From NCBI GenBank assembly GCA_022868165.1, contig JALHYA010000008.1:38444-102443 (forward strand): 64,000 nucleotides of DNA, given 5' to 3'. The DNA comes from Patescibacteria group bacterium. GTDB taxonomy: Bacteria > Patescibacteriota > Microgenomatia > UBA8517. Under the pieces are notes generated by a model. The model was not told where the DNA came from. It made no database searches and saw only the letters and a list, made by a program, of their open reading frames with translations. Below are positions 39,495 to 55,056 of this stretch, in pieces. A program made the translations under genes and the position numbers. Numbering within the stretch: position 1 is the first letter of the stretch; each line of letters begins with the position of its first letter.

Positions 39495-40288
39495 TTCCAG
39501 TTAATCAATTTGTTTTTAACCGAAGGATTGTTGAGTATTTGCCAATATTTAAAATAAGCAATTGGAAAATGTAGTCCGGAGAAAAGATCGAAAACAAATC
39601 CATACATTCCGTCCCTAATACCTCTATGCCTAATAAGAAGCATCACAAATGTCCATAGGGGCTTCGCCGTTGACCACCAAAACAAATGGAATACATCGAC
39701 TGGATATTTTTTATTTTCAAGCTCTAGGGCAGTAAGAGTTGTGTAACGATTCGCGTTTACCAGATACTTATTGAAAGTCGGTGCCGTATGGTGCTCCATC
39801 GGGTTCTCCAGCGTTCCGACGGAGCCATCTATTTGAGCTTGCTCGTGAACGCTGACTTGAGGAAGGTGACCCTTTCCTCTTCTGAATAGTCTGATTGTAG
39901 AATCCGGCCACATCCCGCTTCCTTTCATCCAGTGACCCAAAAAGTAATTTTTTCTTTTTATCCAAAACCCGTTATTTTTTTCTTTTGGGCTTTCAACAAC
40001 TTTTCGAATTTCGTTAGCAAGTGCGGGAATAACTCTCTCGTCGGCATCGAGCTGTAATATCCAATCCCCCGTTGCCGAATCAATCGCCTTTTGTTTTGTA
40101 ATGTGGAAAAGCGGTTCATGCTTAACCTTAAAAACCTTTGCACCCAGACTTTCCGCTATTTCTCGAGTTTTGTCCGTTGAAGATTCATCAAAAACGATTA
40201 TCTCGTCGACAATCTCCTTAACCGACCTCAAACATTCGGCTATATTTTTCTCCTCGTTAAAAGTGGCAAGAACAACTGAGAGTTTCAT
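39491..40288 (-). CDS. Family 2 glycosyltransferase (paralog of the GT2 at 62476-63222)
   Basis: MKLSVVLATFNEEKNIAECLRSVKEIVDEIIVFDESSTDKT. The C-terminal NYFLGHWMKGSGMWPDSTIRLFRRG parallels NFLLGHEMHWGGWWPDYVLRLIRKD in the other copy. Confidence 0.75.
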   Translation of the reverse strand: MKLSVVLATFNEEKNIAECLRSVKEIVDEIIVFDESSTDKTREIAESLGAKVFKVKHEPLFHITKQKAIDSATGDWILQLDADERVIPALANEIRKVVESPKEKNNGFWIKRKNYFLGHWMKGSGMWPDSTIRLFRRGKGHLPQVSVHEQAQIDGSVGTLENPMEHHTAPTFNKYLVNANRYTTLTALELENKKYPVDVFHLFWWSTAKPLWTFVMLLIRHRGIRDGMYGFVFDLFSGLHFPIAYFKYWQILNNPSVKNKLINWK

Positions 40289-41550
40289 ATTAGTTTTGCT
40301 ACCCGCTCACCCAATTCTATCGCAAAATTTGAACCTCTATCCCATGGGTGAATTTGCTGCATATTGGCGATATAAAGACCTTTAATGGGACTTTCCAACG
40401 AAGGCATTTTTTGGGAATAATTAAGCGGAGCTATCGGCTGGGCAAAAAATGCTGGAAACTTGTATGCCTTCTTAATCCAAGACTTATCAAAGTCCGGACT
40501 TATCTTTTTGAGATGTGGAGTAAATTCCTCTATCAGCTGCTCTGTGGAATAATCAAAAAACGGATGAGTCGGCTCCAAATAATTACCGACATAAAGAAGT
40601 CTTTCTCCATCATAATATTTTGGGTCCATGAAATTCGTGTGCTCTACTACTGCCAAAAACGGCATTTTGTCGTTAACGTTAAGCCAGTAGGTCCCGTCTT
40701 TGAAAAATTGTTGCTTAAGTGAAAGGAGTAAATTAAATGCCGCTATTCCTTTTAAACTTAAGAGCTTCTTTTTGTATAAATCCGGTAATTGTGATGTCAG
40801 TTTAACGAAGTAAAGAAAAGGCAAGGTGCAAATAACCTTATCAAAGATATATTCCCCCTTTTTGGTCTTTACGGTCAAGTTTCCACCCTTTTTAATAATA
40901 TTTTCAACCCGGGTGTCGTAATATATTTTTGCCTTGTTTGTTTCTAGTATTTTTTTCTCGAGAGCGTCTACATATGCCTGAAAACCCCCTTCGGGGTAAA
41001 CCAAGGTTGCACTTCTTTTTTTAATTCTTGCCCAAAACCATGAGGCCGGAATATCTTTGGCATATTTACCGAATTTAGACCTAAAAAGAGGCTCCCATAG
41101 AACTTTCCATGATTTATTTCCCATCGTTTTTCTTAAAAATTTTTCCGCCTTAACTCCTTCAAGAGATTTCCACGAAGAAAAATACCTTAAATAGGCAATA
41201 ACAACACCGGTTCTAATCCTATCGATCACTGAAAGGTGGGGAAACTTCAAAAGTTTTATCGGAGAATCAATTTGATAAACTTTGCCTTTATAAAGGGTGG
41301 ATGTTTGGGCGCGCTCAAAAATAAGTTTAACTCCAATCCTTTCGGCGAGGCTGCGTATCGGCCAGTCTGACGTAAACCAATGGTGATAATGTTTTTCGAT
41401 TGTCCATATCCAATTCGACTCTTTAAAGCCAAGGGCCAGCCCTCCGGGTTTTGAGTCCGCCTCAAAGACGGTAACATCCATTCCCTTTTGGGTTAATTTC
41501 TCTGCGGCCGCAAGGCCTGTAAATCCTGCTCCGATTATTCCTACTTTCAT
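40285..41550 (-). CDS. NAD(P)/FAD-dependent oxidoreductase (amine-oxidase / protoporphyrinogen-oxidase-like fold)
   Basis: N-terminal KVGIIGAGFTGLAAAEKLTQKGMDVTVFEADSKPGG (dinucleotide-binding motif), YPEGGFQAYVDAL and a C-terminal GLYIAN...GSNFAIELGERVA, as in HemY/amine-oxidase family proteins. Confidence 0.6.
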   Translation of the reverse strand: MKVGIIGAGFTGLAAAEKLTQKGMDVTVFEADSKPGGLALGFKESNWIWTIEKHYHHWFTSDWPIRSLAERIGVKLIFERAQTSTLYKGKVYQIDSPIKLLKFPHLSVIDRIRTGVVIAYLRYFSSWKSLEGVKAEKFLRKTMGNKSWKVLWEPLFRSKFGKYAKDIPASWFWARIKKRSATLVYPEGGFQAYVDALEKKILETNKAKIYYDTRVENIIKKGGNLTVKTKKGEYIFDKVICTLPFLYFVKLTSQLPDLYKKKLLSLKGIAAFNLLLSLKQQFFKDGTYWLNVNDKMPFLAVVEHTNFMDPKYYDGERLLYVGNYLEPTHPFFDYSTEQLIEEFTPHLKKISPDFDKSWIKKAYKFPAFFAQPIAPLNYSQKMPSLESPIKGLYIANMQQIHPWDRGSNFAIELGERVAKLI

Positions 41551-41553
41551 TTT

Positions 41554-43209
41554 TTAGTTTGCGACTATCTCGAAATATATGTATCCGTTTTCACCATAAA
41601 TTTTCTTGACTATATTCGCCTCATTCGGAATTTCGTCGGGGGTTCCAATTATCATGCTATTCGGGTTTCCGGTCTGAATTTTAGCAAAATCGATGGGCTC
41701 AAAGTAATATTTGCCGAAATTTCGCACAGTTGAGAACCCGTACTTATCCCTTGGAATCAGGGTGTGCTCTTTTTGGAACTGCGCCGGAGGATACTTCATG
41801 GAATAACCGTCTACGCCGTAGAAAAGAAAAAGAATGTATGGCTGGTCGTATCGGTCGGTAATAAATACCTTTTGATATTTGAACTGATTTGCTTCGACAT
41901 ATGAGACCAATTCTTTTACTCCGTACTGTGAAGAAAACGGATATTCTTTTGCAATATGGACGTAATACATGTGTAAGTATCGCGTGAGAGACCACGCGAT
42001 TACAATGATCAATGACCAATGGCCAATGGCCAATAAAGATTTTCTTTGTCGTTTTAGCCAATCCAGAATTGTAATAAGACCGAAGGAAGAGATAATAACC
42101 AAAGGTATAACCATATTTTGTGCCCTCAAGGCAGAGGGAGACTGAAAGGTTAGGGCTGATGCCAATGGGGCGATAATCAACCAAAGCAACACTACTCCCC
42201 ATCCCTTGGAGTTTTTGACGACTGCCATAAGTCCGGCGGCCAAAAACAAAATATCGAAAAGATACATTTGCCCCGTTTCCGGTACTTTATTTCTTTGAAC
42301 GCTGTCTCCCGTCATAAACAAAAATTCTCCGTCGAAGTGTTTTGCCCAATTTCCCAAAAACGCCAGGCCATAATTAACCGCTTTGTTATGATAAACTTTT
42401 GCCACCAAGCTGGTAAAATCACCGTGTTCCCCTCTTTGCTCATTGATTCTAGACAGGGGTCCGGGATCTGCAAAAAGTCCAACTCCTGCTATCCTGGAAA
42501 GCACGGCTGTTCCCGTCAAATCCTTAGCCAAAGGCACCAACAAAAGAATTAAGAATAAGGAATTAAGAATTAAGAACTTAATATTCTGTTTCTTAAATAA
42601 TACCTTTCGATAAATAATTACCAATCCCAATCCTAAAAGCGGGGCAACTATCCTTGCTGCGTGGTAGGCATATAAAGATAGAGCAAATGCAATAACGGAG
42701 AGCGCAAAATATAGAATAACCCACTTCGTGGTAGAATTTTTTAGTCCCTTTAAGAAAAGCCAAACACCCAGAACTATTAGAAACGTTGCCGTATTTACTT
42801 CCCAGCCGCCCCGGGAAAACTGCAAGTGCCATGGACTAATTGCCAGAAAGAAACTTGATGCCAGCGCAAGCCTTTCGTCATCAAACAGCTCTTTTATCAA
42901 AAAGTACAAGATAACTACCGTCAAAACTCCTAAGGCTGCCCCGGGAATTCTAACCGACCAAACATTAAGACCGAAAAATTTTACAAACGGAAGAACCACG
43001 TAGAAGTAAAGTCCGGGTTTGTAATCGTTGAAAGATTGAAAATGAATGGGCCAAGAATTCCCGTGTTCATCCATTCCTGTTTGTATCAGGGAATAGACGT
43101 TATACCCTATTGCCGCCTCATCCGCATTAAGAGCCGGATAATCTCCAAGGCGGTAAAACCTTAAGATAAAGGCAAGCAAAATAATCGCCAAAAGAATAAA
43201 TTTCTTCAT
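41554..43209 (-). CDS. ArnT/PMT-family (GT83/GT39-like) polytopic glycosyltransferase, paralog 1
   Basis: LNADEAAIGYNVYSLIQTGMDEHGNSWPIHFQSFNDYKPGLYFY is the hallmark ArnT/PMT first periplasmic loop (DExxxxY...G.DE.G...P...F.D.KP). 551 aa with a conserved C-terminal domain. Confidence 0.8.
   Translation of the reverse strand: MKKFILLAIILLAFILRFYRLGDYPALNADEAAIGYNVYSLIQTGMDEHGNSWPIHFQSFNDYKPGLYFYVVLPFVKFFGLNVWSVRIPGAALGVLTVVILYFLIKELFDDERLALASSFFLAISPWHLQFSRGGWEVNTATFLIVLGVWLFLKGLKNSTTKWVILYFALSVIAFALSLYAYHAARIVAPLLGLGLVIIYRKVLFKKQNIKFLILNSLFLILLLVPLAKDLTGTAVLSRIAGVGLFADPGPLSRINEQRGEHGDFTSLVAKVYHNKAVNYGLAFLGNWAKHFDGEFLFMTGDSVQRNKVPETGQMYLFDILFLAAGLMAVVKNSKGWGVVLLWLIIAPLASALTFQSPSALRAQNMVIPLVIISSFGLITILDWLKRQRKSLLAIGHWSLIIVIAWSLTRYLHMYYVHIAKEYPFSSQYGVKELVSYVEANQFKYQKVFITDRYDQPYILFLFYGVDGYSMKYPPAQFQKEHTLIPRDKYGFSTVRNFGKYYFEPIDFAKIQTGNPNSMIIGTPDEIPNEANIVKKIYGENGYIYFEIVAN
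42010..42034. repeat. Near-tandem heptamer repeat (CAATGRC x3.5)
   Basis: aatgaccaatggccaatggccaat, encoding LAIGHWSLII within the ArnT-like paralog 1. Confidence 0.4.
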
Positions 43210-43233: not shown

Positions 43234-44895
43234 TTATTTCACCTCCACTATTCTAAAAGCAACTGTACCATCGAGATATCTTATTTCTTTTATTGGCTTT
43301 ACAAAGTTTGAATTATTGGCATCTTCGGACGGAATAATGATGGGATCAGCAACAACTAATGTTCCGTGCTCTTTTTTATTAATCGGCCAATCTATTGCCG
43401 TGAACTGAATATTATCAAGTTTGGTGTGATATCCTACGTCAGCTACGTTTTCGCTGGGGACAAGCTCAGCCGTTTTTTGATATTTGGCGGGGTCGTACCG
43501 CTGAAAAAACAAAAAATAAATATAGGGCTGTGCAAACGATTGCTGTACTTTTATGGTCTTATACTGCGACTGGATTGAGGTAACCGTTTGGACTATTTGT
43601 TTGTAGCCATAATCCCAATATTGAGAGTTATGCTTCAGTTGATGGACAAAATATTCTTCTAAGAAATAAGAATAGTTAATCAAATAAATAAAAACAAAAA
43701 GACCCAAGAGCCATTTTTTCCATTTGAAAAGTTGGGTTAACCCTACTGCCGACATTATTATCAGAGGAACAGCGAGAGCGAATGCGCGAACGGAGTGGAC
43801 CTCGTTGCGAGATAAAGCTGCCGGAAGGGGTGCCAGAACCATCCATAGGAATACAAACAGAACTTCTTTCTTTACTCCCATGCGAACAAGGCCAATAAAT
43901 CCGGCAATTAGAAGAATTAAATCCGCAAAAATAAATACGCCGACATAGGGAGCCGATTGCCTCGGATTGGACCAGTCGCCCTCAAAAAACAGGAACCTTC
44001 CTGAAAAATGATTAAACCACCTACCCAGAATTGCTCTCTTAAAATTTAGCGTTTCCGAATGGAAAATATAATAGGAAAGACTGCCGATTTTTTCGTTTCC
44101 TTCCGACAAAAAAGCCGTGAGAGATTCTGTTGTCCTCGGGTAGGAAAAAATACTAAAGACGTTAAGTCTGCCTGTTTCTCCTCGAAAAAGACTGATGAAA
44201 ATAGGAATTGCTATTACGATTCCTATGAGGACCGAAGCTCCAAGTATTTTCTTGGATGCAGAAAATATTTCGCGCCAATAAAGTAAAAGCAAAATTATCA
44301 CTACAATCCCTGTCGCCAGTTTTGCCCCTTGGTAAGCAAGAAGGGTTAGAGAAAAGAAAATCGAGGATAAAATCAAGAACTTTGGTTTTTCCAAAAATTT
44401 CAGGAAGAAGTAAATTCCTGCCAAAGTAAGGGTGAGGGCTATATTTGCTTCCCATGCCCCACGAGACAGATATAGAAACCAGGGGTTGATGGCCGCAAGG
44501 AATGCGGCACAGATGGCCAGTAACTTATTATTAGCAAATAGTTTTGAAACGATAAGATATATAAGGAAAACCGAAAAAATACCTGCAAGGGCGCTGGGAA
44601 ATCTGGTAGCAAACTCCGTCAAACCAAAAACGGCTACCGGAGGAACAGTTAAATAAACATAAAGTCCGGGTTTATAATCGCCGAAGGATTTGAAAATAAC
44701 CGGCAAAAACTTTCCGTATTCGTCTCTTCCGGTTTTTATTATCGAGAAAGCGTTATAGCCCAATGCCGCTTCGTCCGCGTCAAGCGAGGGAGGATTGGAA
44801 CCCAAGTTCCAAAAACGCAATATTGCGGCCAAGAGAAAAATTATAGTTAATGGCCAATGGCTAATGGCTAATTTTCTAATTTGCATATATTTCAA
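43234..44895 (-). CDS. ArnT/PMT-family polytopic glycosyltransferase, paralog 2
   Basis: LDADEAALGYNAFSIIKTGRDEYGKFLPVIFKSFGDYKPGLYVY. Confidence 0.8.
   Translation of the reverse strand: MKYMQIRKLAISHWPLTIIFLLAAILRFWNLGSNPPSLDADEAALGYNAFSIIKTGRDEYGKFLPVIFKSFGDYKPGLYVYLTVPPVAVFGLTEFATRFPSALAGIFSVFLIYLIVSKLFANNKLLAICAAFLAAINPWFLYLSRGAWEANIALTLTLAGIYFFLKFLEKPKFLILSSIFFSLTLLAYQGAKLATGIVVIILLLLYWREIFSASKKILGASVLIGIVIAIPIFISLFRGETGRLNVFSIFSYPRTTESLTAFLSEGNEKIGSLSYYIFHSETLNFKRAILGRWFNHFSGRFLFFEGDWSNPRQSAPYVGVFIFADLILLIAGFIGLVRMGVKKEVLFVFLWMVLAPLPAALSRNEVHSVRAFALAVPLIIMSAVGLTQLFKWKKWLLGLFVFIYLINYSYFLEEYFVHQLKHNSQYWDYGYKQIVQTVTSIQSQYKTIKVQQSFAQPYIYFLFFQRYDPAKYQKTAELVPSENVADVGYHTKLDNIQFTAIDWPINKKEHGTLVVADPIIIPSEDANNSNFVKPIKEIRYLDGTVAFRIVEVK
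44847..44873. repeat. Near-tandem heptamer repeat (TAATGGC x3)
   Basis: taatggccaatggctaatggctaat, encoding LAISHWPLT near the N-terminus of ArnT-like paralog 2. Confidence 0.4.
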
Positions 44896-46564
44896 AAGCA
44901 GGATTTCCGTCCAAAAACTTAATTGTTTCCAATTTCTTCCACTCCGAAGGGTAATTTCCGGGACCGGTTATCAATAAACATTTGGAAATTGTGCAATCCA
45001 CACTGCCTTTGCTTTCCAGAACAAATGTTTGTCCACTTTTGGGAATCTGCCAATCATTCACAAAATAAAACTTATCGAGCCTGTCTACCCAATACCAACC
45101 GGACTGGAAAAATCTTATCGCACTGGAGTCATTTTGATATTTGGCCGGGTCCCAGGGCCAATAGAAGAGGAAAAATTCGTGCGGCTCCCCGTATTTTTTG
45201 GTAACAATTATCTTGTCGTACTTGGAATAGTTTGCCTTGGTGTATTCGACAGCCTGTCTATATCCATACTGCCAGGACCACGAATAAGTTCGCGGATACT
45301 TTATAAAGTAGTTGATAAGATAGCTTTCGGCAAAAAAGTATATACCGATTAAGTAAAGCGCAACTAATATGCTCTTATATTTTCCGGCAGTTTTTTTGTT
45401 TAAATAATCAAAAACAAAAAATGCGCCAAGTGCCGATAAAATTTGTGGCAATGGCAGCATTGTCGAAATCCTGGTCACGGCAAAGTGCTCATTGGTAATA
45501 GCTCCCGGTATCGGACTTAATAGAAGCCAAACTAAAATAAATTGATAATCCGTAGAATCTTTCGCTCGTTTAAGAAGTATTAAGAGTCCCAGATAAAAAA
45601 ACGGCAAGTTGATTAAATAAGAAAGCCCAAAACCCGGAAGGCTATATTGATATTGAGTTCCCCCGTTTAGAAAAAGGAATTTTGGCGAGAAATATTCAAG
45701 ATAATTCTTTGTAAATTGAGAAGCGAAATAGGTTGGACGGTTATAAACAACTTTTGAAATTAAAACGGGGAGTTTTGAATTATTTCTATTCTCGATAATT
45801 TTATTTACCGCTGATTGATTTATTATAAAAAGCCACTGGCCTCTGGCTCTGGAGCTGGGTTCCAATATTATTGCGGCGGCCAACACAAGGAACGACAAAA
45901 CCACAGATATCAAAAGAGCAAACAAAAATCCACCCTTTTTAAATAACGACTTAAAATCTTGACGATAAATAATAACCGCGGCAACCAAAATCATCGGAGA
46001 GAAAATTCTTGTTGAATGATAAGCAAAGAGCGACAAAAAGAGCGAAACAAGCGACAAGGGCAAAAGATATTTGCTTTTATGCCAATTGAAAAATGCTGCC
46101 ATAGCTGTAACAAGAAGAAAAATGGAAACGTTTTGTTGAAGCACAATTCGTGAGGTAAACAACGTCCATGGCTCAACTGCAACCAAAAAAGATGCCAATA
46201 AAGCCAGCCCCCGCCGCTTCGTTAATCCTAACGCCAGGAAGTATGTTGCGACTACTGTTAATACGCCCAATATCACATGAGGAAAACGAATCGAAAATGC
46301 GTTTAGCCCAAAAACTACAATCGATGGAATCGTAATATATAAATTTAAAGGTAGAGGATAATCTCCATAAGCCCGAAAGTTTACTAAAGGAAATTTCTGT
46401 CCCCATTGATCGGCACCAGTCTTTAATATCGAATAAGCGTTATAACCGTGCGAAATCTCGTCCCAATTAAGCGCTGGTGGAAATTTATCCAGGTAAGCAA
46501 ATCTGAGAGCAAAGGCAAGAATAACAGTAAAAACAAATAAGGCCAAATATTTATATTTCGTCAT
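44876..46564 (-). CDS. ArnT/PMT-family polytopic glycosyltransferase, paralog 3
   Basis: LNWDEISHGYNAYSILKTGADQWGQKFPLVNFRAYGDYPLPLNLY. Confidence 0.75.
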   Translation of the reverse strand: MTKYKYLALFVFTVILAFALRFAYLDKFPPALNWDEISHGYNAYSILKTGADQWGQKFPLVNFRAYGDYPLPLNLYITIPSIVVFGLNAFSIRFPHVILGVLTVVATYFLALGLTKRRGLALLASFLVAVEPWTLFTSRIVLQQNVSIFLLVTAMAAFFNWHKSKYLLPLSLVSLFLSLFAYHSTRIFSPMILVAAVIIYRQDFKSLFKKGGFLFALLISVVLSFLVLAAAIILEPSSRARGQWLFIINQSAVNKIIENRNNSKLPVLISKVVYNRPTYFASQFTKNYLEYFSPKFLFLNGGTQYQYSLPGFGLSYLINLPFFYLGLLILLKRAKDSTDYQFILVWLLLSPIPGAITNEHFAVTRISTMLPLPQILSALGAFFVFDYLNKKTAGKYKSILVALYLIGIYFFAESYLINYFIKYPRTYSWSWQYGYRQAVEYTKANYSKYDKIIVTKKYGEPHEFFLFYWPWDPAKYQNDSSAIRFFQSGWYWVDRLDKFYFVNDWQIPKSGQTFVLESKGSVDCTISKCLLITGPGNYPSEWKKLETIKFLDGNPAFEIYAN

Positions 46565-48246
46565 TAATTAGTCTTTTTCTTTCCGTTAAAAACAATCGTT
46601 CCCAAAATAATTGCGGCAGATAAAATGCTTAATATATCCGAAGCTTTTCTTGGCGGAGTTTCTCTCCAAAAAACATTGATTTGGGATTTTCCACCCGAAA
46701 CCTCAATGCCTATATCTCCATGGGGCTCGAGAACTTTGGTTGATAAAGATATACCGTTAACCGTTACATACCATCCGGGAAAAGAGTAGGAATGAAACTC
46801 GACTGTTCCCTTTCCTTCTACTGTCGCAGAATAGCTCACCAAAGAATTTTCTCGAATATCGTCTATTTTTACGTCCTTCGAGGTAAACTTTGCGGAAGGA
46901 AGAGAGTCCGGCCTTTTTTGCACAGCCAGCGGTAGAAGAAGATAATCTTCGCTATAATTTTTGTATTCAGGAGAAAGCTCACTGGCCATACCCACGGTTG
47001 TATTTCTTGCAAAAAATCTTTTGAGAAAATAATTATCATCGGGATAGTAATAACCGCTTGGCTTGAAATAGGAAAAATTAATCGCGATTACCAAAGCCGA
47101 GAGGCCAATAGTCAGTTCTTTTCGATATTTTTTGACAGAATCAAAGAAAATTACGAAAGCGGAGGTTAGAAAAGTGGTAAGCATCAAAAGTCGCCAGGGA
47201 AACTGAATATATGTGGATAGAGAAAATACCTTCCATAAAAAGTTCGACCTTATATTCATTAGGAAGAGGGTGAACAAAACGCTTGCGGCAATAAAGATGT
47301 AAAAAAGTCTTTTTTCTTTAGACAATTTTTTAATCATAAATATACTCAAAATAATTAAGACCCAATTTATAATTCCTACCTGGAAGGAAATGTCGTCGTT
47401 GGGTCCAGGAAGCGAAGCTCCATAACGGAAAGGAGAATATATAAGCTGTTTGATAAAGGGAAAGTGATCGATGTAATTGAAAGGTGTTTGGGGATTGAGA
47501 AGGTTTTTTTCAAAAAATGCAGGGATTACGAAAAAGGCAGCACTGAAAAAGCCCAGTACCATTCCGATACCTGCCCTGACAAGACTAACAAAAGATTTTG
47601 AATTTATCGCTAGAACAATTGCATAAATTACGGCAATTGGTAAAAACATGATGGCCGAAAGATTGTGGGTAATGAGAAGGACTCCCGTAACCAATCCTAA
47701 AAAGCCTATCGACCTTAACTTTTTCTCTCCAAAAACTTTATTAATCGTCCAGAGAAGAAGTGGAAAAATGGTAAACGATAGTGCCTCTCCGATGGCACCG
47801 CGAACATACAAATCAACAGCACGGTATGGCGTAAAAATGTATAGAATACTTCCTAAAAGTGCAGCCCAAGTATCGGTGTGCTTCCTCAACCACATATACA
47901 TAAAAATTCCGGAAAGAGGAATCGAAACCAGAAAAACCATCTTTAAAGAAAAAATCAAGGAGTGACTGAAAAAGTAAACCAACGACCCGAGATAAAACGG
48001 AAAAACATAATAGAAGTTAAAAAGCGGGTATCCATACTCATAGCTCATATCGGGAACCCATCGTGGGGGAATTTGGCCTGATGAAATCGCCCTTATCATT
48101 TCGTAGAGGTCTGCTATGTGCGGCTCGTCGGAGAAATGAAAAAAACCGCTTCTTAAAAGAGGGATAGAGGCCAAAAGGCTGGCCACAAGAATAGCGACTA
48201 TAAAAAACCACTTACTTCTTGTTAATTTTGTCCAATATTGCTTCAT
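46564..48246 (-). CDS. Polytopic membrane protein, second GT-C-like paralog family (member A)
   Basis: 560 aa. The N-terminal loop SGFFHFSDEPHIADLYEMIRAISSGQIPPRWVPDMSYEYGYPLFNFYYVFPFY is shared with the next gene. About 12 TM helices and a C-terminal beta-rich soluble domain. Confidence 0.4.
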   Translation of the reverse strand: MKQYWTKLTRSKWFFIVAILVASLLASIPLLRSGFFHFSDEPHIADLYEMIRAISSGQIPPRWVPDMSYEYGYPLFNFYYVFPFYLGSLVYFFSHSLIFSLKMVFLVSIPLSGIFMYMWLRKHTDTWAALLGSILYIFTPYRAVDLYVRGAIGEALSFTIFPLLLWTINKVFGEKKLRSIGFLGLVTGVLLITHNLSAIMFLPIAVIYAIVLAINSKSFVSLVRAGIGMVLGFFSAAFFVIPAFFEKNLLNPQTPFNYIDHFPFIKQLIYSPFRYGASLPGPNDDISFQVGIINWVLIILSIFMIKKLSKEKRLFYIFIAASVLFTLFLMNIRSNFLWKVFSLSTYIQFPWRLLMLTTFLTSAFVIFFDSVKKYRKELTIGLSALVIAINFSYFKPSGYYYPDDNYFLKRFFARNTTVGMASELSPEYKNYSEDYLLLPLAVQKRPDSLPSAKFTSKDVKIDDIRENSLVSYSATVEGKGTVEFHSYSFPGWYVTVNGISLSTKVLEPHGDIGIEVSGGKSQINVFWRETPPRKASDILSILSAAIILGTIVFNGKKKTN

Positions 48247-49876
48247 ACGAAAAAAGGGAAATTACCGATAATGCTCCAATCAAGCTGATAATATCTGCCA
48301 AGCTCCTATACCATGGCTTAATTAGTCTTGCTTCTATTTTTGCATCGCCTGCAGGAACTTTAAAGCTAACCAGTCCCAACTGGCCTGTGGCCTGCGCTTT
48401 AACACCGCCACCATTCACTATAACTTCCCAATTTGGGAAATCAAAAGCAGGCAAAGAAACATATCCACCACCGCTTCCCGTTTTTACGTCAACCTTGTAC
48501 CAATTTGTACCTCTTTCGAAACTTACAGTATTAACTACCCCTTCGAGAACAATCAACGAATTGGGCACTTTGGAGGTAGGAGCCTTTGAAGCGCTTTTGG
48601 GTAAATAGTCATAAATACTCGCCGTAATTTGCCTCTCCAGGTTATCTCCCGAAAGTTTTTGGGCATCGGTAATATCGAACCAATCTTTGGGCCTGTAAAA
48701 ATTTCCGTAAAGAGCAAAAGTAGCTATCAGCAAGATTAGGACCAAAACCCAATAAATTTTCCCTTTAAAGGCTGATGCAAAAATTGCACCAAGGACCGAA
48801 GAGCAGAAGGTGGCCAACAGCATAAACCTCCATGGAAACTGAAGGAATTCCATAAAAGGTAGCGCTTTCCAAATAAAAGTAGAGCGTTCATGAGACAAAA
48901 AAGCGGCCAAAATAAAAAAGGCGACAAAAAATATTGAAGTGGTTTTGATTTCTTTCTTTTTGGTAATCAGTCCGTAGATGAATCCCAGTACAGCCGCAAA
49001 TGTACCGATTGGACCGAGACCCAAAAAAGCACTGTCATTCGGACCGGCAATTGATGGTCCATAGCCCCATCTTGTGGAAATAAAGATTTGTTTAAGGTTA
49101 ATAAAATGGGCCAAATAGTTAAAATAGCCGGACGTCAAAGTTTCAAGATGTACCAAATTTCTCTCGATAAAAAGTGGCAGCCAGAAAAAAGCGGATATTG
49201 CCAACCCGATGGCACCTGAAATTATGACTCGACCCAAGGTTTTCTTATCAATTTTTAGTTGGATAATTCTTAGAATTATCCAGCCGGCAACCAAGGGAAT
49301 GGTCATTAAAACGGTCAGGTTGTGGCAAATCATATAAATCCCCACGCTAATGGTAAAAATCCCCATCGAAATTTTGTTTTTGTTTTTAATAAGGTTTTCA
49401 AAACCCCAAAGAACCAGAGGCAAAGCCATAAGACCCCACGCCTCACCCATTCCCCCTCTAACAAAAATCTCGGCTGCTCTAAATGGAGCATACAAATATA
49501 GTATCGTTCCAAATAAAGATGCCTCTTTTGAAAAAAGATTTCTTAGAAAAAGGTAAAAGAAGATTGCCGAAAGGATTACGCTCAAAATAAATCCTGCCTT
49601 GACGGAATCGATAAAACCCAAGCCTCCAAGGTGAACAAGCTCCATTGCATAGTAAGGAAGGGGCGCATAATAGATATATAGCGGGTAACCATATCCGTAT
49701 CCCAAATCGGGCACCCATCTGCAAGGAATCTGGCCATCTTTAATACAACTATCCATATCTTTAAGTCGAATAATCTGCATATCGTCATACATCGAGAAGA
49801 ATCCCGGTCGAACCAAACTTTTTACTACGGGGATAATCAAAATCGTCAAAATTAAAATCCAGAGAATCTTTTTCAT
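48212..49876 (-). CDS. Polytopic membrane protein, second GT-C-like paralog family (member B)
   Basis: PGFFSMYDDMQIIRLKDMDSCIKDGQIPCRWVPDLGYGYGYPLYIYYAPLPYY, the same loop motif as member A. Start is likely the internal M (MKKILWILIL) at about 49876. Confidence 0.4.
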   Translation of the reverse strand: MKKILWILILTILIIPVVKSLVRPGFFSMYDDMQIIRLKDMDSCIKDGQIPCRWVPDLGYGYGYPLYIYYAPLPYYAMELVHLGGLGFIDSVKAGFILSVILSAIFFYLFLRNLFSKEASLFGTILYLYAPFRAAEIFVRGGMGEAWGLMALPLVLWGFENLIKNKNKISMGIFTISVGIYMICHNLTVLMTIPLVAGWIILRIIQLKIDKKTLGRVIISGAIGLAISAFFWLPLFIERNLVHLETLTSGYFNYLAHFINLKQIFISTRWGYGPSIAGPNDSAFLGLGPIGTFAAVLGFIYGLITKKKEIKTTSIFFVAFFILAAFLSHERSTFIWKALPFMEFLQFPWRFMLLATFCSSVLGAIFASAFKGKIYWVLVLILLIATFALYGNFYRPKDWFDITDAQKLSGDNLERQITASIYDYLPKSASKAPTSKVPNSLIVLEGVVNTVSFERGTNWYKVDVKTGSGGGYVSLPAFDFPNWEVIVNGGGVKAQATGQLGLVSFKVPAGDAKIEARLIKPWYRSLADIISLIGALSVISLFSYEAILDKINKK

Positions 49877-49877
49877 A

Positions 49878-51560
49878 CTATTTTGCAGTAAGGACTTGGG
49901 AAGACGGATCAACAATCAAAATTGCCGGCTTTCCGTCGGGATAATAGACCGTATGGAGAGCAATTACCTTTCCGGGAAATTCCTCAGGTTTTCCAATAAA
50001 TAGAATTCCCGGTTTATCTTTATTATTATCATAATACAAACTCCCAAATCTATACTTACCTAGCCAGTATCCTTCCAGTCCATCTAAATAAAGAAAACCT
50101 TCTTGCTCATATCTCAACCATGTTTTCGACGCCAGTTGAACTTCGTGAGGGTCCCATTTTTCATAAAACTGTACCCAAATATTCGAAGCCCCCAGGCCCC
50201 TGCCTACATAAATCATCTCATAATTGCCCGCAATTTTGTTTACGTAAATAAAGGCTTCCTTCTCTCCGTATTGCATTGATTCGGCCGAGCCGTAAGGGGT
50301 ATGGTATAAATAGTCTTCAGTAAACACCAGCAGAGAGCCGAAGATTACTATTCCCAGAATTGAAAAGGTTGCAATTCTCCATGCTCCACGCAATTTTTCT
50401 TTGACGAAAGAGTAAAAGATGAAAAATCCGTAAGCTGAAAAAATTTCGATTGCCGGAAGCATTACTACAGCTCTATTTGCCGCATATCCTGGTCCCTTCG
50501 TCATTGCGGCGGCAAAGGGAGAAAGAACAATCCATAAAAATAAAAATCCAAGCAGCAAAGAATCCTTTTTTCGAATCAGGGCCACAAGCGCCAACACGAT
50601 AAATATTATTTCGAAGAAGTACATCACTCCCCTCCCAGGAATCATTCCATAGGACCACTCTCCTGCTCCCTGGAAGAATAAGAAATATGGAGAAAGATAG
50701 GAAAAATAATTCTGTAAAAATAAGTGTTCCACATATGCAGGTTTGTTTGAGAACACTCTGGCAACGCTGTCTGGAAGACCCAAAAGTACAGCTTCATATC
50801 TGCGCGTGCTTACCGCAGCCCATTTATCTGTGGGGTTGGTAATTAAGATATCGGATCCTCTTTTTCCAGCACCGAAAAAGAATGTCGAAAAAGCAGCCAC
50901 AAAGAAAAAAAGAAACACCAATATTGAAAGCCACTGACGTTTAAGCGAAAATTTTCTATAGAAAAAGATTGATAAAAGAAAAATGATGACTGGAGTAAAA
51001 AGCCGCGCACCATGATAAGAAAAGAGGTTAAGTCCAAACGATAGAGAGGCCAGAATCATCCATTTTGGTTTTTCAAGTCCCTTCAAAAAAGCCCAGATGC
51101 CCAGGGGAATAAAAAATGTACTTAGGTTTACTCCCAAACCTACTCGAGAAAGAGATATGTTCCAAGGAGAGATTGCCAAAAGCAAGGCGGACATAAGCGC
51201 AATTAATTCATTTTCCTTGTGTTCGCTGAACAATTTTTTGACCATAAGATATGTTGCAAGAACTGCCAAGGTTCCAAAGAGCGCACTCGGAAATCTTGTA
51301 GAGAATTCATTCAGTCCAAATACTGCAACTGAAGGTATCGTCAAATACCCATATAAAGGGAGTTTAAAATCTCCTAATGAGCGAAAAAGCAAAGGCCAAC
51401 TTACTCCCCATTGGTCGTGGCCGGTCTTTAACAGCGAGTAGGCATCATATCCTAAAGAAGCCTCGTCTTGGGTAAATCCGACAGGATGCAAACTTATATT
51501 CCATAAACACAAGAAAAAGGCCAGGATAATAATTAAACCCAAGACAAATTTGCGAATCAT
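49878..51560 (-). CDS. ArnT/PMT-family polytopic glycosyltransferase, paralog 4
   Basis: GFTQDEASLGYDAYSLLKTGHDQWGVSWPLLFRSLGDFKLPLYGY. Confidence 0.8.
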   Translation of the reverse strand: MIRKFVLGLIIILAFFLCLWNISLHPVGFTQDEASLGYDAYSLLKTGHDQWGVSWPLLFRSLGDFKLPLYGYLTIPSVAVFGLNEFSTRFPSALFGTLAVLATYLMVKKLFSEHKENELIALMSALLLAISPWNISLSRVGLGVNLSTFFIPLGIWAFLKGLEKPKWMILASLSFGLNLFSYHGARLFTPVIIFLLSIFFYRKFSLKRQWLSILVFLFFFVAAFSTFFFGAGKRGSDILITNPTDKWAAVSTRRYEAVLLGLPDSVARVFSNKPAYVEHLFLQNYFSYLSPYFLFFQGAGEWSYGMIPGRGVMYFFEIIFIVLALVALIRKKDSLLLGFLFLWIVLSPFAAAMTKGPGYAANRAVVMLPAIEIFSAYGFFIFYSFVKEKLRGAWRIATFSILGIVIFGSLLVFTEDYLYHTPYGSAESMQYGEKEAFIYVNKIAGNYEMIYVGRGLGASNIWVQFYEKWDPHEVQLASKTWLRYEQEGFLYLDGLEGYWLGKYRFGSLYYDNNKDKPGILFIGKPEEFPGKVIALHTVYYPDGKPAILIVDPSSQVLTAK

Positions 51561-51580: not shown

Positions 51581-53245
51581 TCAGTTCTTGGTGTAAACGT
51601 AAAAAATAGGAGTTCCGTCTGGGCCTCTGGATGTAAATATTAAGTTCAACTTTCCTGTATTAAAAATTTCGGGGTTGGTTACATCCTTCACGGCCGAAGC
51701 CACTATCAAATCTCCATGTTCCCCCAAATTTTCAACCGGTTTTTTGATATCTCCAAAATAATACTTACTGCCAAGCTTGAATCCGTTAAAGCTCGGGGCA
51801 ATGTTATCTGAAAAGGTGTCCCTTTCGAATTGTTTTTGGAAAAGTTTCATATCATATCCGTACCAAAAGAGAAACCTTTGAAGCATCGGTTCATGAGTAC
51901 TGTTTAGATATACCCTGTTATAACTTCCGTCGATGCCTTTAACATATTGGAGGGTTTCTTTAAAACCGTATTGCCATTGGCGCCACGTTTCATTGGGCCA
52001 AACAACAAAATAGCGATTCATAAACCTGGAAACCTCAAAAACCATAACCAGAGCGACCAAAATCACAATAATATTTCTGACTAACGGTCTTTTTAATTTT
52101 GTTAGAAAGTCAAAGCCAGCGGCGGAGAAAAAAATCAGCGGGGGAAGCATCAAAATAAGTCTTGATGCGTGCGTTCCTCCACCCTGAGTAAGGCTGGAGG
52201 GAATGGGGGCCAGTATAAGCCAAAGTGGAAAAATCCAGTTTAGCTTCTTGGAGGGTTTGCTTGTTGCAGCAAGGACAATTAGCACGACTCCGATTAGCAC
52301 AAGAAAAAAATCGAAATGGTACATCTCTCCAAATTCGTCTATGGAGCCGCGGGGATTGGGATCACCTTGAGCAAAGAGAAAATTGGAAGAAAAAGATTGC
52401 ATGTAATTACTGAAAACCAGGGAAGTTATAACTGTAGCCTTATTGTAAAAAAGTCTTCCAAGTATTCCATGTTCAAATACTCTTTCGTTTTCTACCCTGG
52501 CTACTATTTCAGCGGCGGGAGCAACGCTAATGTCCGATATCCTTCTGATGGTCTTTCCTTTTACTGTCCAAAGCAGGTAAGGTCCCAAAAACAAGATGGT
52601 GATTAGCGCCACCAACATGAGCTTTTTGATGCCGTATGAAAATACCTCCCGCCGAAAAATTATCAAAAGTCCCAAGACAAATAGGGGCACAAAAAGCGAA
52701 GAGACTGCATAAGAGTAAATGCTCAAGGAGAAAAGTATTGCGGACAGAATAAGATATTTGTAATTTTTTAGACCCTTAAGAAAAAGGTAGGTACCAAAAA
52801 TTATAAAGGGCAAAAGGATTCCCGCGTCGTTGGCTTCCCTGGAAAAATTGAAGTGCCAAGGAGAAAAAGTCATAAACAGTGAAGCGATTATTCCTAATTT
52901 CTTCCCGACAAGTTCCTTTACGAGAAGATAAAATGCAAGAATCGTCAAAAATCCCATTAAAACGGCCGGGCCTCTTACCCCTGTCTCGTTAAGACCGAAA
53001 AGTTTGATAAACGGAACATCCATGTAAAGCTGCATCGGTAGGCGGTATTCCGCAAAGCTATGGAAAAGAACAGGAAAAGAAGTTCCGAGATAATCTTTAC
53101 CGGTTGTCAAAATCGAATTCGCCTGAAGACCGACATCTAGTTCGTCACCGAAAAGCGAAATTGGAACACGGTTTATTTGCCAAATCCGAAAGTACGCACC
53201 GAGAAGAAAAGCAGCTATAACAATAATTGGAATTATTTTTTTCAT
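51581..53245 (-). CDS. ArnT/PMT-family polytopic glycosyltransferase, paralog 5 (divergent)
   Basis: LFGDELDVGLQANSILTTGKDYLGTSFPVLFHSFAEYRLPMQLY is a divergent version of the same loop. It also has the shared C-terminal domain. Start is likely the M (MKKIIPIIV) at about 53245. Confidence 0.65.
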   Translation of the reverse strand: MKKIIPIIVIAAFLLGAYFRIWQINRVPISLFGDELDVGLQANSILTTGKDYLGTSFPVLFHSFAEYRLPMQLYMDVPFIKLFGLNETGVRGPAVLMGFLTILAFYLLVKELVGKKLGIIASLFMTFSPWHFNFSREANDAGILLPFIIFGTYLFLKGLKNYKYLILSAILFSLSIYSYAVSSLFVPLFVLGLLIIFRREVFSYGIKKLMLVALITILFLGPYLLWTVKGKTIRRISDISVAPAAEIVARVENERVFEHGILGRLFYNKATVITSLVFSNYMQSFSSNFLFAQGDPNPRGSIDEFGEMYHFDFFLVLIGVVLIVLAATSKPSKKLNWIFPLWLILAPIPSSLTQGGGTHASRLILMLPPLIFFSAAGFDFLTKLKRPLVRNIIVILVALVMVFEVSRFMNRYFVVWPNETWRQWQYGFKETLQYVKGIDGSYNRVYLNSTHEPMLQRFLFWYGYDMKLFQKQFERDTFSDNIAPSFNGFKLGSKYYFGDIKKPVENLGEHGDLIVASAVKDVTNPEIFNTGKLNLIFTSRGPDGTPIFYVYTKN

Positions 53246-55056
53246 GTCCAGTTGGTCAACCATCCGGATAGCATAACAAGCATCCAAATTGAACCGGCAT
53301 TGTTTTCCTTTCTTTCCTGATGGGCATTCCAGATTTTTTCAATCTTGCTTCGGTCAATATAATCATACAATTTTGGATTCCTAATTGCCTCATAGGCGAA
53401 ATCTTTGAGTTCTCCCCTTATCCATTTTGCAACAGGGATGCCAAAACCCTTTTTGGGCCTTTTGGCTACTTCAGGCAGCTTCCTTTTAAGAAGATTTCTT
53501 AAAAGAATTTTTGTTTCCAGTAGATTTACATGGTTGCGAGGATAGGAATATGCATAATCGATAACGTCGTTGTCCAAATATGGGACTCTTACCTCCAAAG
53601 AGTTATACATCGAAGCCCTGTCGGTCTTAACCAAAAAATCATCTCTCAAATAGGTGTAATAATCTGTAATTTGCGCCTGACGAACGGGGTTGACACTATC
53701 GAGCTTCGGCATCACCTTACTTAGCCAAGAAAATTCCGGTTTCTTATAGAGAATGTTTTCGCCTCTAAAAAAGGTACGCATCATATATAAGTGTCTGTCT
53801 ACGGGCTCTTTACGAACTCCCTTTAAAACTATTTTGGCCAACTCCTTGGGTGGATAATTTTTGTCCGATTCCGGAAGCATATTTAAAAGAAAAATAGATG
53901 AATCCAAAACGAATTTGGGCAAGTATTTTAGCTTCTCGGCAATAATTTGCGCCTGATAGGTAGGATATCCTCCGAAAAGTTCGTCTCCTCCGTCACCGCT
54001 AAGGGCTACGGTCACATATTTTCGTGCAAGCTTGCTGACTTTGTAGGTGGGAAAAAAGGAAGCATCGGCCAGGGGCTCATCAAGAAGTTTGGTAAGAGAT
54101 TTATATAAATCGGGAATTTCTTTTACTTCAAAAGTTTCACTGTAATGTTTGGTTCCCAACTTTTTCGCAACAGTCTTTGCATACTGCGATTCGTCAAAGC
54201 TCTGTTCCTTAAAACCTATGGAAAACGATTTCAAACTTTTTATTTCAGAAATAAAACAGGAAAGAAGGCTTGAATCAAGACCACCACTAAGAAGCACGCC
54301 CACCGGGACATCCGCATGAAGTTGACCAACAACGGCATCTCTTAACAGCTCTTTCAACGGTTTTTCCGACATGGGTTTTGAAGGATTGATTTCAAAAAAT
54401 TTCCTTATTGTTAATCCCCTTTTTGAAAAAGTGAGCGAATGTCCGGGAAGAAGTTTAACTATACCCTCAAACATTGATTTTTCCGATGGAATATAGCCGA
54501 AATAGCAATAAAGACTAAGCGCATCTTTATCTACTTTTCTATTAAATCCCGGGACTTTCAAAATAGTTTTGACTTCCGAACCGAAGACAAGCTTGTTCCC
54601 CGACCGGGAAAAATATAGAGGTTTTATTCCCGCCCTGTCCCTTGCGATAAATAACTCTTTCTTCTTGTCATCCCAAATTGCGAAAGCAAACATCCCGTTT
54701 AAATATTTGGCCATGTTGTAGCCGTATTTTTCGTAAAGATGAAGTAAAACTTCGGTATCGCTTTCGGTCTTAAATTCGTGTCCGTCCCTTTTGAGTTCTT
54801 GAACAAGTTCCCGATAGTTATAAATTTCCCCGTTATAGATTACGGTTAAGCTTTCGTCCTCATTTTTGATTGGCTGGTCACCCGTAACCAAGTCGATAAT
54901 ACTTAAACGTCGCACTCCGAGACCTGCTTTTTTGTCGCTACTTACAAAAATGCCCGAAGAATCGGGTCCCCGATAAACAATCTCCCCTATCATGAAGGAA
55001 ATTACCGAGGGGTTAACGCCCGAAGAAAAATCAACGTATCCCGCTATCCCGCACAT
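53242..55056 (-). CDS. Asparagine synthetase B-like glutamine amidotransferase (class II GATase + PP-loop synthetase)
   Basis: N-terminal MCGIAG (catalytic Cys2) and the PP-loop SGGLDSS. 604 aa. Confidence 0.85.
   Translation of the reverse strand: MCGIAGYVDFSSGVNPSVISFMIGEIVYRGPDSSGIFVSSDKKAGLGVRRLSIIDLVTGDQPIKNEDESLTVIYNGEIYNYRELVQELKRDGHEFKTESDTEVLLHLYEKYGYNMAKYLNGMFAFAIWDDKKKELFIARDRAGIKPLYFSRSGNKLVFGSEVKTILKVPGFNRKVDKDALSLYCYFGYIPSEKSMFEGIVKLLPGHSLTFSKRGLTIRKFFEINPSKPMSEKPLKELLRDAVVGQLHADVPVGVLLSGGLDSSLLSCFISEIKSLKSFSIGFKEQSFDESQYAKTVAKKLGTKHYSETFEVKEIPDLYKSLTKLLDEPLADASFFPTYKVSKLARKYVTVALSGDGGDELFGGYPTYQAQIIAEKLKYLPKFVLDSSIFLLNMLPESDKNYPPKELAKIVLKGVRKEPVDRHLYMMRTFFRGENILYKKPEFSWLSKVMPKLDSVNPVRQAQITDYYTYLRDDFLVKTDRASMYNSLEVRVPYLDNDVIDYAYSYPRNHVNLLETKILLRNLLKRKLPEVAKRPKKGFGIPVAKWIRGELKDFAYEAIRNPKLYDYIDRSKIEKIWNAHQERKENNAGSIWMLVMLSGWLTNWT

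Follow-up and report, generated by a model that had tools for sequence, protein, structure and literature searches.

Two overlapping genes of a Patescibacteria contig encode divergent PF10131 proteins that are probably lipid-donor GT-C glycosyltransferases

In the 64,000-nucleotide stretch of Patescibacteria DNA analysed here (the window), two adjacent genes, ORF A and ORF B, encode proteins that align over their full length with 32% identity (E 2e-77), in agreement with a preliminary description of two neighbouring paralogs of 555-560 aa. They are the only two copies of their family in the window. The genes are tightly packed, with the ATG of ORF B lying 1 nt past the stop of the upstream gene, the start codon of ORF A lying 35 nt within ORF B, and the TAA of ORF A overlapping the ATG of the next gene (TAATG); this is the packing on which translational coupling had been proposed. 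A TTG-extended frame of ORF B runs out to 49915. The flanking genes encode PMT_2/PMT-type GT-C proteins, so that the pair is indeed set inside an ArnT-like array, an arrangement that is common elsewhere, 62 of 79 related loci having PMT_2-type ORFs no more than 8 kb away. Coordinates of the genes and their features are summarized in Table 1.

Table 1. Features of the ORF A/ORF B locus, with positions given in the window.
Feature	Coordinates	Strand	Details
ORF A	46564..48246	minus	560 aa, ATG start; A-type member (cluster A) of the PF10131/YfhO-like GT-C clade; last gene of the cassette
ORF A, EL1	47986..48144	minus	residues 35-87; F35, D40, H43, GQIPPRWVPD 57-66, YGYPLFNFYY 71-80
ORF A, QFPWR motif	47191..47205	minus	residues 348-352; start of long helix 350-393
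ORF A, C-terminal beta-sandwich	46657..46884	minus	about residues 455-530; DSSP strands 460-527; predicted extracytoplasmic
ORF A, C-terminal TM anchor	46591..46656	minus	residues 531-552 (model helix); hydropathy peak 535-553
ORF B	48212..49876	minus	554 aa from ATG at 49876; B-type, orthogroup B5; first gene of the cassette, clusters with first-position paralogs of related loci
ORF B, EL1	49643..49801	minus	residues 26-78; D31-D32, C44, C52, GQIPCRWVPD
PMT_2-type GT-C paralogs, upstream	49878..51560, 51581..53245	minus	PF13231, E 3.5e-12 and 7.5e-17
PMT/PMT_2-type GT-C paralogs, downstream	44876..46564, 43234..44895, 41554..43209	minus	PF02366/PF13231
GT2, two C-terminal TM helices	55056..56012	minus	318 aa; PF00535; TM peaks 238-296
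GT2, PpgS/AglJ/dolichyl-P-hexose-transferase-like	36683..37342	minus	219 aa; PpgS model full length, E 4.9e-36, under cutoff
DUF2304 protein	36342..36686	minus	three TMs; 55 bits

The family had been described as unnamed and possibly uncharacterised, and only the second part of this holds, for the literature searched. Both proteins exceed the whole-protein gathering threshold of PF10131 (PTPS_related; 26.4 bits), with modest scores of 51.1 bits for ORF A and 33.8 bits for ORF B, and ORF A, whose sequence equals that of a Patescibacteria entry at NCBI (100% identity), is named after the family there ('6-pyruvoyl-tetrahydropterin synthase-related protein'). The match covers residues 76-403 of ORF A (roughly residues 70-410 overall, the core from TM2 to about TM10), corresponding to positions 1-316 (ORF A) and 3-332 (ORF B) of a 621-position model whose C-terminal half is unmatched. 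The threshold is likewise exceeded by each of the 56 aligned homologs, of which 35 also touch PMT_2 and 8 touch YfhO, and PF10131 itself has been placed in the GT-C clan CL0111 (PMC7801869). Some clade members are missed by PF10131 entirely (L003 6648..8372, L004 6706..8343), and some, together with distant relatives, match no Pfam family whatever. At E<=1, Pfam gave no match to either the N-terminal 99 or the C-terminal 168 residues of ORF A searched alone, nor does any model cover its first extracytoplasmic loop; this loop and the C-terminal domain thus lie outside all Pfam models. NCBIfam contains no model for ORF A or ORF B, and PDB sequence searches with ORF A and with a 56-sequence profile returned nothing meaningful. 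In the literature searched on PF10131, COG5617, IPR018776, COG4485, DUF6541, and PF09586, no paper characterises a family member. Judged from their profile matches, the two proteins belong, as divergent members, to a catalogued PF10131 GT-C branch without a characterised member in that literature. As neither protein contains a PTPS domain, the family name is, on the same grounds, a misnomer for them; a pterin-synthase function was rejected for this reason.

The motif GQIPxRWVPDxxYxYGYPL, which had first drawn attention to the pair, occurs exactly in both proteins in the first loop after TM1 (EL1), as GQIPPRWVPDMSYEYGYPL following FSDEPH in ORF A and as GQIPCRWVPDLGYGYGYPL following MYDDMQ in ORF B. 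A chance motif was ruled out by the E value of the paralogy (2e-77) and by hundreds of homologs. The acidic residue of the loop, D40 of ORF A, is conserved across homologs as had been anticipated (250 of 254, with E in 3 more), while the residue after it is E or D in 175 of the 254, and this second acidic position is thus not conserved. Elsewhere in EL1, R62 (253), P60 (244), G72 (250), and P74 (252) are retained in nearly all 254 sequences, as are R149 (248), E154 (251), H194 (252), E246 (238), D284 (240), and R352 (253) among other polar residues. These near-invariant polar residues are located in the first loop and in a long loop (250-291), as in GT-C active sites, and D40 of ORF A and D31 of ORF B are candidate catalytic aspartates. 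A forced global profile alignment places D40-E41 on the 'DE' motif of PMT_2, with a probability of 55.6% and low local confidence. A pair of cysteines in EL1 is present in 43/43 B-type sequences and in 0/211 others; such perfect co-variation in an extracytoplasmic loop is as expected for a disulfide, for which C44-C52 of ORF B is the candidate. Further downstream, Q348, P350, W351, and R352 of the QFPWR motif are each found in 250-253 of the 254 sequences, and the motif persists in distant homologs, as QFPSR in Roseomonas and as QFPWR in Lactococcus. R352 is a candidate phosphate-binding residue by comparison with the arginine conserved ahead of TM10 in STT3/ALG9-type GT-Cs (PMC7801869).

Structure prediction and Foldseek searches were performed with ORF A, and the fold of ORF B was taken as fixed by its full-length homology. 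The AF2 model (pLDDT 91.5, pTM 0.91) and hydropathy agree on TM1, a loop of ~50 residues, a polytopic helical core, a beta-sandwich, and a final TM helix, bearing out the N-terminal loop, TM core, and beta-rich C-terminus described previously. The final helix (531-552), followed by a Lys-rich tail, was absent from that description. Residues 394-530 form an extracytoplasmic region that separates helix 350-393 from the terminal helix, and Lys/Arg-rich termini at both ends fit an N-in/C-in topology. The beta-sandwich carries a conserved FPGW motif (P490, W492), and its partial Foldseek matches are to accessory beta-sandwich domains of GH30/GH146 enzymes. Against the PDB, the model gave 13 matches at E<=1e-3, GT-C enzymes without exception, including STT3 (E 1e-4), AftD, AftA, EmbC, AglB, PglB, ArnT, ALG9, Pmt4, and DPY19; query-normalised TM-scores were moderate at 0.35-0.46 (0.41-0.46 without EmbC), a range in which GT-C sub-families are not separable. 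Together with clan membership, the loop aspartate, and operon context, this GT-C-only match upholds the earlier suggestion of a GT-C-like glycosyltransferase distinct from its ArnT neighbours, and both proteins are probably lipid-donor GT-C-type glycosyltransferases.

The database name, and the fact that YfhO itself has been raised, as an untested proposal, as a possible lipid-intermediate flippase (PMC5836110), could be taken to mean that these proteins are transporters, lipid flippases, or pterin-related enzymes. We regard this as very improbable, given that the single transporter among the Foldseek matches has a probability of 0.08, that the PTPS catalytic domain is absent, and that the near-invariant polar residues are placed as in GT-C active sites. 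Profile matches of ORF A and ORF B to Pfam likewise stay within the GT-C clan, and no transporter or other non-glycosyltransferase family was found save one sub-threshold match of ORF B to MFS_MOT1 (E 0.047, 14.5 bits vs a cutoff of 30). The transporter reading, supported by neither fold nor profile, was rejected.

Within the GT-C clan, the closest comparisons are with YfhO and PMT_2/ArnT. YfhO is the GT-C of the CsbB/GtcA/YfhO system for GlcNAc-glycosylation of teichoic acids in B. subtilis, S. aureus, and Listeria (PMC5836110, PMC8035078), and the B. subtilis protein spans the membrane 13 times, its final two TMs being separated by an extensive extracellular region (PMC5836110). ORF A and ORF B share with it a polytopic core and an extensive extracytoplasmic stretch ahead of the last TM and after the one before it, as well as pairing with a GT2 C55-P-sugar synthase, for which a candidate GT2 is present here. 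However, B. subtilis YfhO exceeds them in length by ~300 residues, their extracellular region comprises ~135 rather than 389 residues, their family occurs in fixed multi-paralog cassettes of CPR genomes, and teichoic acid is not assumable as their acceptor. Neither of the two proteins matches the YfhO model (PF09586; gathering threshold 28.5 bits) at E<=0.1, and its threshold is passed by clade members P0105 (46.7 bits), P0009 (32.2 bits), and the upstream B-type paralog of L003 (48.6 bits, the top YfhO score among the matches listed). D..FH..R and QFPWR occur together in a relative on a Lactococcus plasmid, in which a C-terminal W-x-x-V-x-V-N-G motif precedes a terminal TM. The PF10131 model, for its part, extends neither to the EL1 signature nor to the C-terminal beta-sandwich and terminal TM of the two proteins. 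ORF A showed no similarity to a flanking PMT_2 gene in BLASTP. Only profile-profile comparison links the family to its PMT_2 neighbours, and the match is confined to the TM2-TM6 core (residues 76-216; hhalign probability 95.9%, E 5.5e-9). Both groups have an Asp about 8-10 residues past TM1 and a predicted lipid-phosphate sugar donor, whereas EL1 is unrelated in sequence save for that Asp, the C-terminal domains are dissimilar, and a terminal TM anchor is missing from the neighbours.

The cluster in which the pair resides is rich in cytoplasmic GT2/GT4 enzymes, two of which, in the same co-directional cluster as ORF A and ORF B, may supply the donor. The 318-aa GT2 resembles ArnC (E 1.2e-52) and PgfS (E 4.7e-37) over its full length, both under equivalog cutoffs, and is a candidate polyprenyl-phosphate sugar synthase (ArnC/GtrB/PgfS-like); the 219-aa GT2 and the DUF2304 protein (together 36342..37342) are a candidate second lipid-sugar donor module. 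In a distant Roseomonas homolog, the gene overlaps a GT2 gene. No GtrA-type flippase was found among the window ORFs scanned, the sole small multi-TM ORF being DUF2304; the flippase gene may lie elsewhere, or a different kind of flippase may be used. Use of a lipid-linked donor by ORF A and ORF B is predicted from operon context.

Abundant GT2/GT4 genes could also build a lipid-linked oligosaccharide, and the top Foldseek matches are STT3, AglB, and PglB; a Polysacc_synt (Wzx-type) flippase gene lies near one related locus, and one homolog has a sub-threshold O-antigen_lig match. These observations would suit OST/ligase-like enzymes that transfer a preassembled glycan en bloc from polyprenyl-diphosphate rather than single sugars from polyprenyl-monophosphate. 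We nevertheless consider such enzymes unlikely, as the model fits STT3 (TM-scores 0.42-0.46) no more closely than AftD/ArnT (0.41-0.46), and sequence profiles match PMT_2 and YfhO and never STT3 (PF02516), which is unmatched by ORF A, ORF B, or any of the 56 homologs. Moreover, a WWD-type motif is absent from both translations, the C-terminus is a small beta-sandwich as opposed to the large STT3 periplasmic domain, and the operon contains monophosphate-type sugar synthases (ArnC-like, PpgS-like).

For single-sugar transfer, a mechanism can be proposed by analogy with multi-component transmembrane glycosylation systems (GT2, flippase, and GT-C). The cytoplasmic GT2 enzymes of the operon would load sugar on polyprenyl phosphate, the lipid-sugar would be flipped to the outer leaflet, and the outward-facing active sites of A and B would pass the sugar to an envelope acceptor, which could be a surface protein or a glycopolymer. 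The post-TM1 Asp (D40 in A, D31 in B) may serve as catalytic base or acceptor-activating residue, the donor phosphate may be held by R62, K102, R149, and R352 (QFPWR), and the C-terminal beta-sandwich, tethered by the last TM helix, may bind the acceptor glycan. We infer donor, acceptor, and catalysis, and the activity is a predicted one, because no PF10131 or clade member is characterised in the searched literature. The most likely role of ORF A and ORF B is the transfer of sugars from lipid-linked donors to the cell surface; that they are, more fully, anciently diverged paralogs of a Microgenomates-wide YfhO/PTPS_related GT-C branch performing lipid-donor surface glycosylation as proposed appears reasonably probable.

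Pairing of such paralogs is not confined to the window, as 71 of 81 related loci contain 2-4 tandem copies of the family with ~30% identity between cassette groups. Typing of copies as A or B was based on alignment-based clustering; earlier regex typing left many copies unclassified. In Microgenomates-group genomes the cassettes are fixed, and the canonical gene order is B5-B4-A (38 loci), followed by B5-B4-A-B3 (7 loci) and B5-A (4 loci), the last being the form found in the window. Fusion proteins were also observed, P0121 (B+A) and P0239 (with a PMT_2-type unit), which could be frameshift or assembly artefacts. Based on the fixed gene order across many species and occasional fusion, A-type and B-type products most likely cooperate, whether by acting one after the other on one glycan or by forming a heteromeric enzyme. 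Physical association, to which fixed order, translational overlap, and fusions point, would also be expected if one paralog were catalytic and the other a non-catalytic GT-C-fold scaffold, acceptor-binding, or regulatory partner in a heteromer; EL1 does differ, with a Cys pair and DD in B-type and D-x in A-type, and in a review of Gram-positive systems it is speculated that acceptor binding by small GT-Cs may require partner proteins (PMC8035078). Retention of the Asp, R62, R149, E154, and QFPWR in both groups is, however, unexpected for a degenerate subunit and makes this division of labour decidedly unlikely. Cooperation of two active paralogs could extend to an obligate, Microgenomates-specific hetero-oligomeric GT-C enzyme for a lineage-specific surface glycopolymer or protein glycan, in which the A-type loop and a B-type loop stapled by a disulfide would form distinct donor or acceptor sites and B5-A would be the minimal form, but we offer this as speculation that is more doubtful than probable.

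The fixed cassettes, the B-type Cys pair, and the likeness to YfhO in architecture and motifs go beyond database content. While no new kind of system is implied and practical gains are modest, annotation can be corrected to GT-C glycosyltransferase, away from 'pterin synthase-related', a catalytic-loop signature lacking in the Pfam model is defined, and heteromer formation or sequential action of A and B becomes a testable hypothesis. The two genes belong to one of the large GT-C families without a known reaction for any member. A search with a profile of the clade retrieved 22,609 cluster representatives when the cutoff was E<=1e-3 and 6,382 when it was E<=1e-30. To our knowledge, Microgenomates have tiny genomes and no cultured representatives; retention in such genomes of 2-4 paralogs in fixed order beside many other GT-Cs suggests heavy investment in extracytoplasmic glycan assembly. 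Nothing specific emerged from a literature search for GT-C, ArnT, or PMT in connection with CPR taxa. Multi-paralog GT-C systems include yeast Pmt1-Pmt2, mycobacterial EmbA-EmbB, and the ALG3/9/12 series, in which, as here, several diverged GT-C paralogs are kept together, presumably acting on one glycan. For A and B, by comparison, association is suggested by gene order, overlap, and fusions; solved structures from such systems (6p25, 7bvc, 9s6s) were among the fold matches of ORF A.

Two paired paralogs sharing a loop signature, as claimed in the preliminary description, occupy positions 46564-49876 of the minus strand. These membrane proteins, ORF A and ORF B, align end to end with 32% identity (E 2e-77), and the signature in their first extracytoplasmic loop after TM1 (EL1) reads GQIPPRWVPDMSYEYGYPL in ORF A, preceded by FSDEPH, and GQIPCRWVPDLGYGYGYPL in ORF B, preceded by MYDDMQ; the window contains no third family copy. 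The upstream PMT_2 gene has its stop one base before the ORF B ATG, the ORF A ATG is 35 nt within ORF B, and the ORF A TAA overlaps the ATG of the next gene (TAATG), junctions that fit co-translation within one long co-directional cluster.

The family is not unnamed, as had been supposed: both proteins exceed the Pfam gathering threshold (26.4 bits) of PF10131 'PTPS_related' (ORF A, 51.1 bits; ORF B, 33.8 bits), and an NCBI record, '6-pyruvoyl-tetrahydropterin synthase-related protein [Patescibacteria group bacterium]', is 100% identical to ORF A. The family, listed in the GT-C clan (CL0111) as of unknown function (PMC7801869), is already catalogued, and the exact ORF A protein is already in NCBI. 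PF10131 was matched by 56/56 aligned homologs, of which 35 also touch PMT_2 and eight YfhO (PF09586), some above threshold. The match is partial (model positions 1-316 of 621, residues ~70-410), and the earlier inability to map the signature has a real basis, since neither the N-terminal 99 residues (TM1 and signature loop) nor the C-terminal 168 residues match Pfam even at E<=1, although the proteins themselves fall inside a catalogued family. Some clade members and distant relatives match no Pfam family, NCBIfam holds no model for ORF A/B, and sequence searches of the PDB returned no relative. Absent from the databases and papers searched are the EL1 signature, a Cys pair in the paralog group of ORF B, the YfhO-like architecture of the family, and its fixed multi-paralog cassette across Microgenomates.

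Given the 56-sequence alignment, AlphaFold2 models ORF A confidently (pLDDT 91.5, pTM 0.91). All significant Foldseek matches in the PDB are GT-C enzymes (STT3, AftD, AftA, EmbC, AglB, PglB, ArnT, ALG9, Pmt4, DPY19; TM-scores mostly 0.41-0.46), which, with the clan membership of PF10131, bears out the proposed GT-C-like fold class; a non-glycosyltransferase function has no support. The small C-terminal domain separately matches glycoside hydrolase accessory beta-sandwiches. Plain BLASTP detects no similarity between ORF A and a flanking PMT_2 gene; compared profile to profile, the family and the flanking PMT_2 paralogs match at 95.9% probability across residues 76-216 (TM2-TM6 core). Because STT3, AglB, and PglB head the fold matches, OST- or ligase-like en bloc transfer is conceivable, if less probable; however, TM-scores do not separate GT-C families, the STT3 profile signal is absent, and monophosphate-type synthases are present.

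Counted over 254 homologs (ORF A numbering), the signature is real and well conserved, with P60 kept in 244, R62 in 253, G72 in 250, and P74 in 252; also nearly invariant are R149 (248), E154 (251), H194 (252), E246 (238), D284 (240), and Q348, P350, W351, and R352 of QFPWR (250-253 each). Lack of a conserved acidic loop residue would have argued against a GT-C reading; D40 is nearly invariant (250/254, E in 3 more), so the loop does carry one. At the second acidic position only 175/254 have E/D; when a global profile alignment is forced, D40-E41 lines up with the PMT_2 neighbours' 'DE', at low local confidence. One catalytic and one non-catalytic member is a possible arrangement, but the candidate catalytic residues are kept in both A and B groups. 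C44 and C52 of ORF B occur together in 43/43 B-type proteins and are absent from 211/211 others; given this co-occurrence and the basic N- and C-termini, the pair fits a disulfide in an extracytoplasmic loop.

Searched with a profile of the clade, 1.84 billion cluster representatives yielded 22,609 proteins at E<=1e-3, of which 6,382 reach E<=1e-30. Among the best 80 loci in species-representative genomes, all those informatively titled are Microgenomates-group CPR bacteria (Woese-, Davies-, Shapiro-, Collier-, and Levybacteria), and many other records bear apparent placeholder titles. Microgenomates-type cassettes in L007-L009, L014 (same contig as L004), L016, and many other loci lie in MAGs titled 'uncultured Gammaproteobacteria' or 'Pseudomonadales' (binchicken/SRP co-assemblies), titles that look like placeholder or wrong taxonomy. 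Two to four co-directional, abutting family copies occur in 71/81 loci. Alignment-based clustering yields one A group and several B groups (~30% identity between groups, 41-62% within) in fixed order: B5-B4-A in 38 loci, B5-B4-A-B3 in seven, and B5-A in four, the last being the order in the window. This gene order was found in neither Pfam, the NCBI protein name, nor papers from the literature search. The pattern recurs, amid PMT_2 GT-Cs and GT2 genes, in the three homolog loci inspected with pre-computed gene calls, and PMT_2-type ORFs lie <=8 kb from the cassette in 62/79 loci. Very long predicted proteins (P0121, P0122, P0128, P0138, P0239; P0128, 3329 aa) contain 2-4 family units or a PMT_2-type GT-C fusion, P0121 joining B-type and A-type units and P0239 a family unit and a PMT_2-type unit; these could be either natural fusions or frameshift/assembly artefacts.

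Coordinates of ORF A, ORF B, neighbouring genes, distant homologs, and ORF A model segments
Feature	Position	Strand	Remark
ORF A	46564..48246	minus	560 aa
ORF B	48212..49876	minus	554 aa counted from ATG at 49876
Carbamoyltransferase, NodU/CmcH-type	32380..34107	minus	within glycosylation cluster
219-aa GT2 + DUF2304 protein	36342..37342	minus	GT2 similar to PpgS, AglJ, dolichyl-P-hexose transferases
FAD oxidoreductase, amine-oxidase fold	40285..41550	minus	NCBIfam PRK07233 'hypothetical protein', 426 bits vs cutoff 252
AsnB-type amidotransferase, glutamine-dependent	53242..55056	minus	in glycosylation cluster
Polytopic membrane ORF	19542..21470	minus	no Pfam match
Polytopic membrane ORF	27592..29130	minus	no Pfam match
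Polytopic membrane ORF	30705..32378	plus	no Pfam match
Polytopic membrane ORF	37339..38469	minus	no Pfam match
Polytopic membrane ORF	59932..61497	minus	no Pfam match
Roseomonas homolog	L083 4953..6677		plasmid p546-2
Lactococcus lactis homolog	L084 4578..6278		plasmid
TM1	residues 12-31		ORF A AlphaFold2 model
Loop with helix 42-55	residues 32-81		ORF A AlphaFold2 model
Polytopic helical core	up to residue 393		ORF A AlphaFold2 model
Beta-sandwich	residues 460-527		ORF A AlphaFold2 model
Terminal TM helix	residues 531-552		ORF A AlphaFold2 model

The pair belongs to a minus-strand glycosylation cluster (~34.1-63.9 kb). One of its GT2 enzymes, of 318 aa, carries two TM helices at the C-terminus and resembles ArnC and PgfS over its full length, scoring below the equivalog cutoffs; besides this and the PpgS/AglJ-like GT2, the cluster includes several more GT2 and GT4 enzymes. 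The 114-aa DUF2304 protein directly after the PpgS/AglJ-like GT2 has three TMs, and no other ORF in the window is both small and multi-TM; this protein may serve a lipid-sugar donor as helper or flippase. The layout is that of Gram-positive multi-component transmembrane glycosylation systems, which pair a GT2 C55-P-sugar synthase with a flippase and a GT-C; YfhO, the closest characterised GT-C of this kind, spans the membrane 13 times and has a large extracellular region between its final two TMs (PMC8035078, PMC5836110). No GtrA-type flippase was found among the window ORFs scanned. From this layout and the likeness to YfhO, we propose A and B as lipid-sugar GT-Cs. They would be outward-facing transferases supplied with polyprenyl-phosphate sugars by the operon's own enzymes, with D40 (A) or D31 (B) as putative catalytic residue; conserved arginines and a lysine may hold the donor phosphate, the beta-sandwich may engage the acceptor, and the paralogs would act jointly, in sequential steps or as a heteromer.

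Below cutoff, the amidotransferase is similar to the model for XrtA/PEP-CTERM-system amidotransferases; together with the carbamoyltransferase it suggests amidated and carbamoylated sugars. The FAD protein, likewise encoded in the cluster, has the PMT_2 array on one side and a GT2 gene on the other; Woesebacteria locus L002 (16780..18054) has a counterpart at 50% identity in the same arrangement.

The distant Roseomonas homolog, whose gene overlaps a GT2 gene, retains D..FH, FPRW, QFPSR, a C-terminal GW motif, and the terminal TM. The Lactococcus plasmid relative retains similar features, the two sharing the D..FH loop, QFP[WS]R, and terminal TM, and the GW motif being additional in the Roseomonas protein. 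Both are 'hypothetical protein' or unannotated and match no Pfam family above threshold; part of the superfamily escapes current family models. The five Pfam-less polytopic ORFs in the window have 8-12 hydropathy peaks and each an Asp-containing loop directly after TM1 (e.g. TIDPDVPY, FATDEPGV, NFDGEHY, FAFDQARDA); these ORFs resemble additional GT-C candidates, as yet unclassified, and counting them would give the window ~14 GT-C-like genes.
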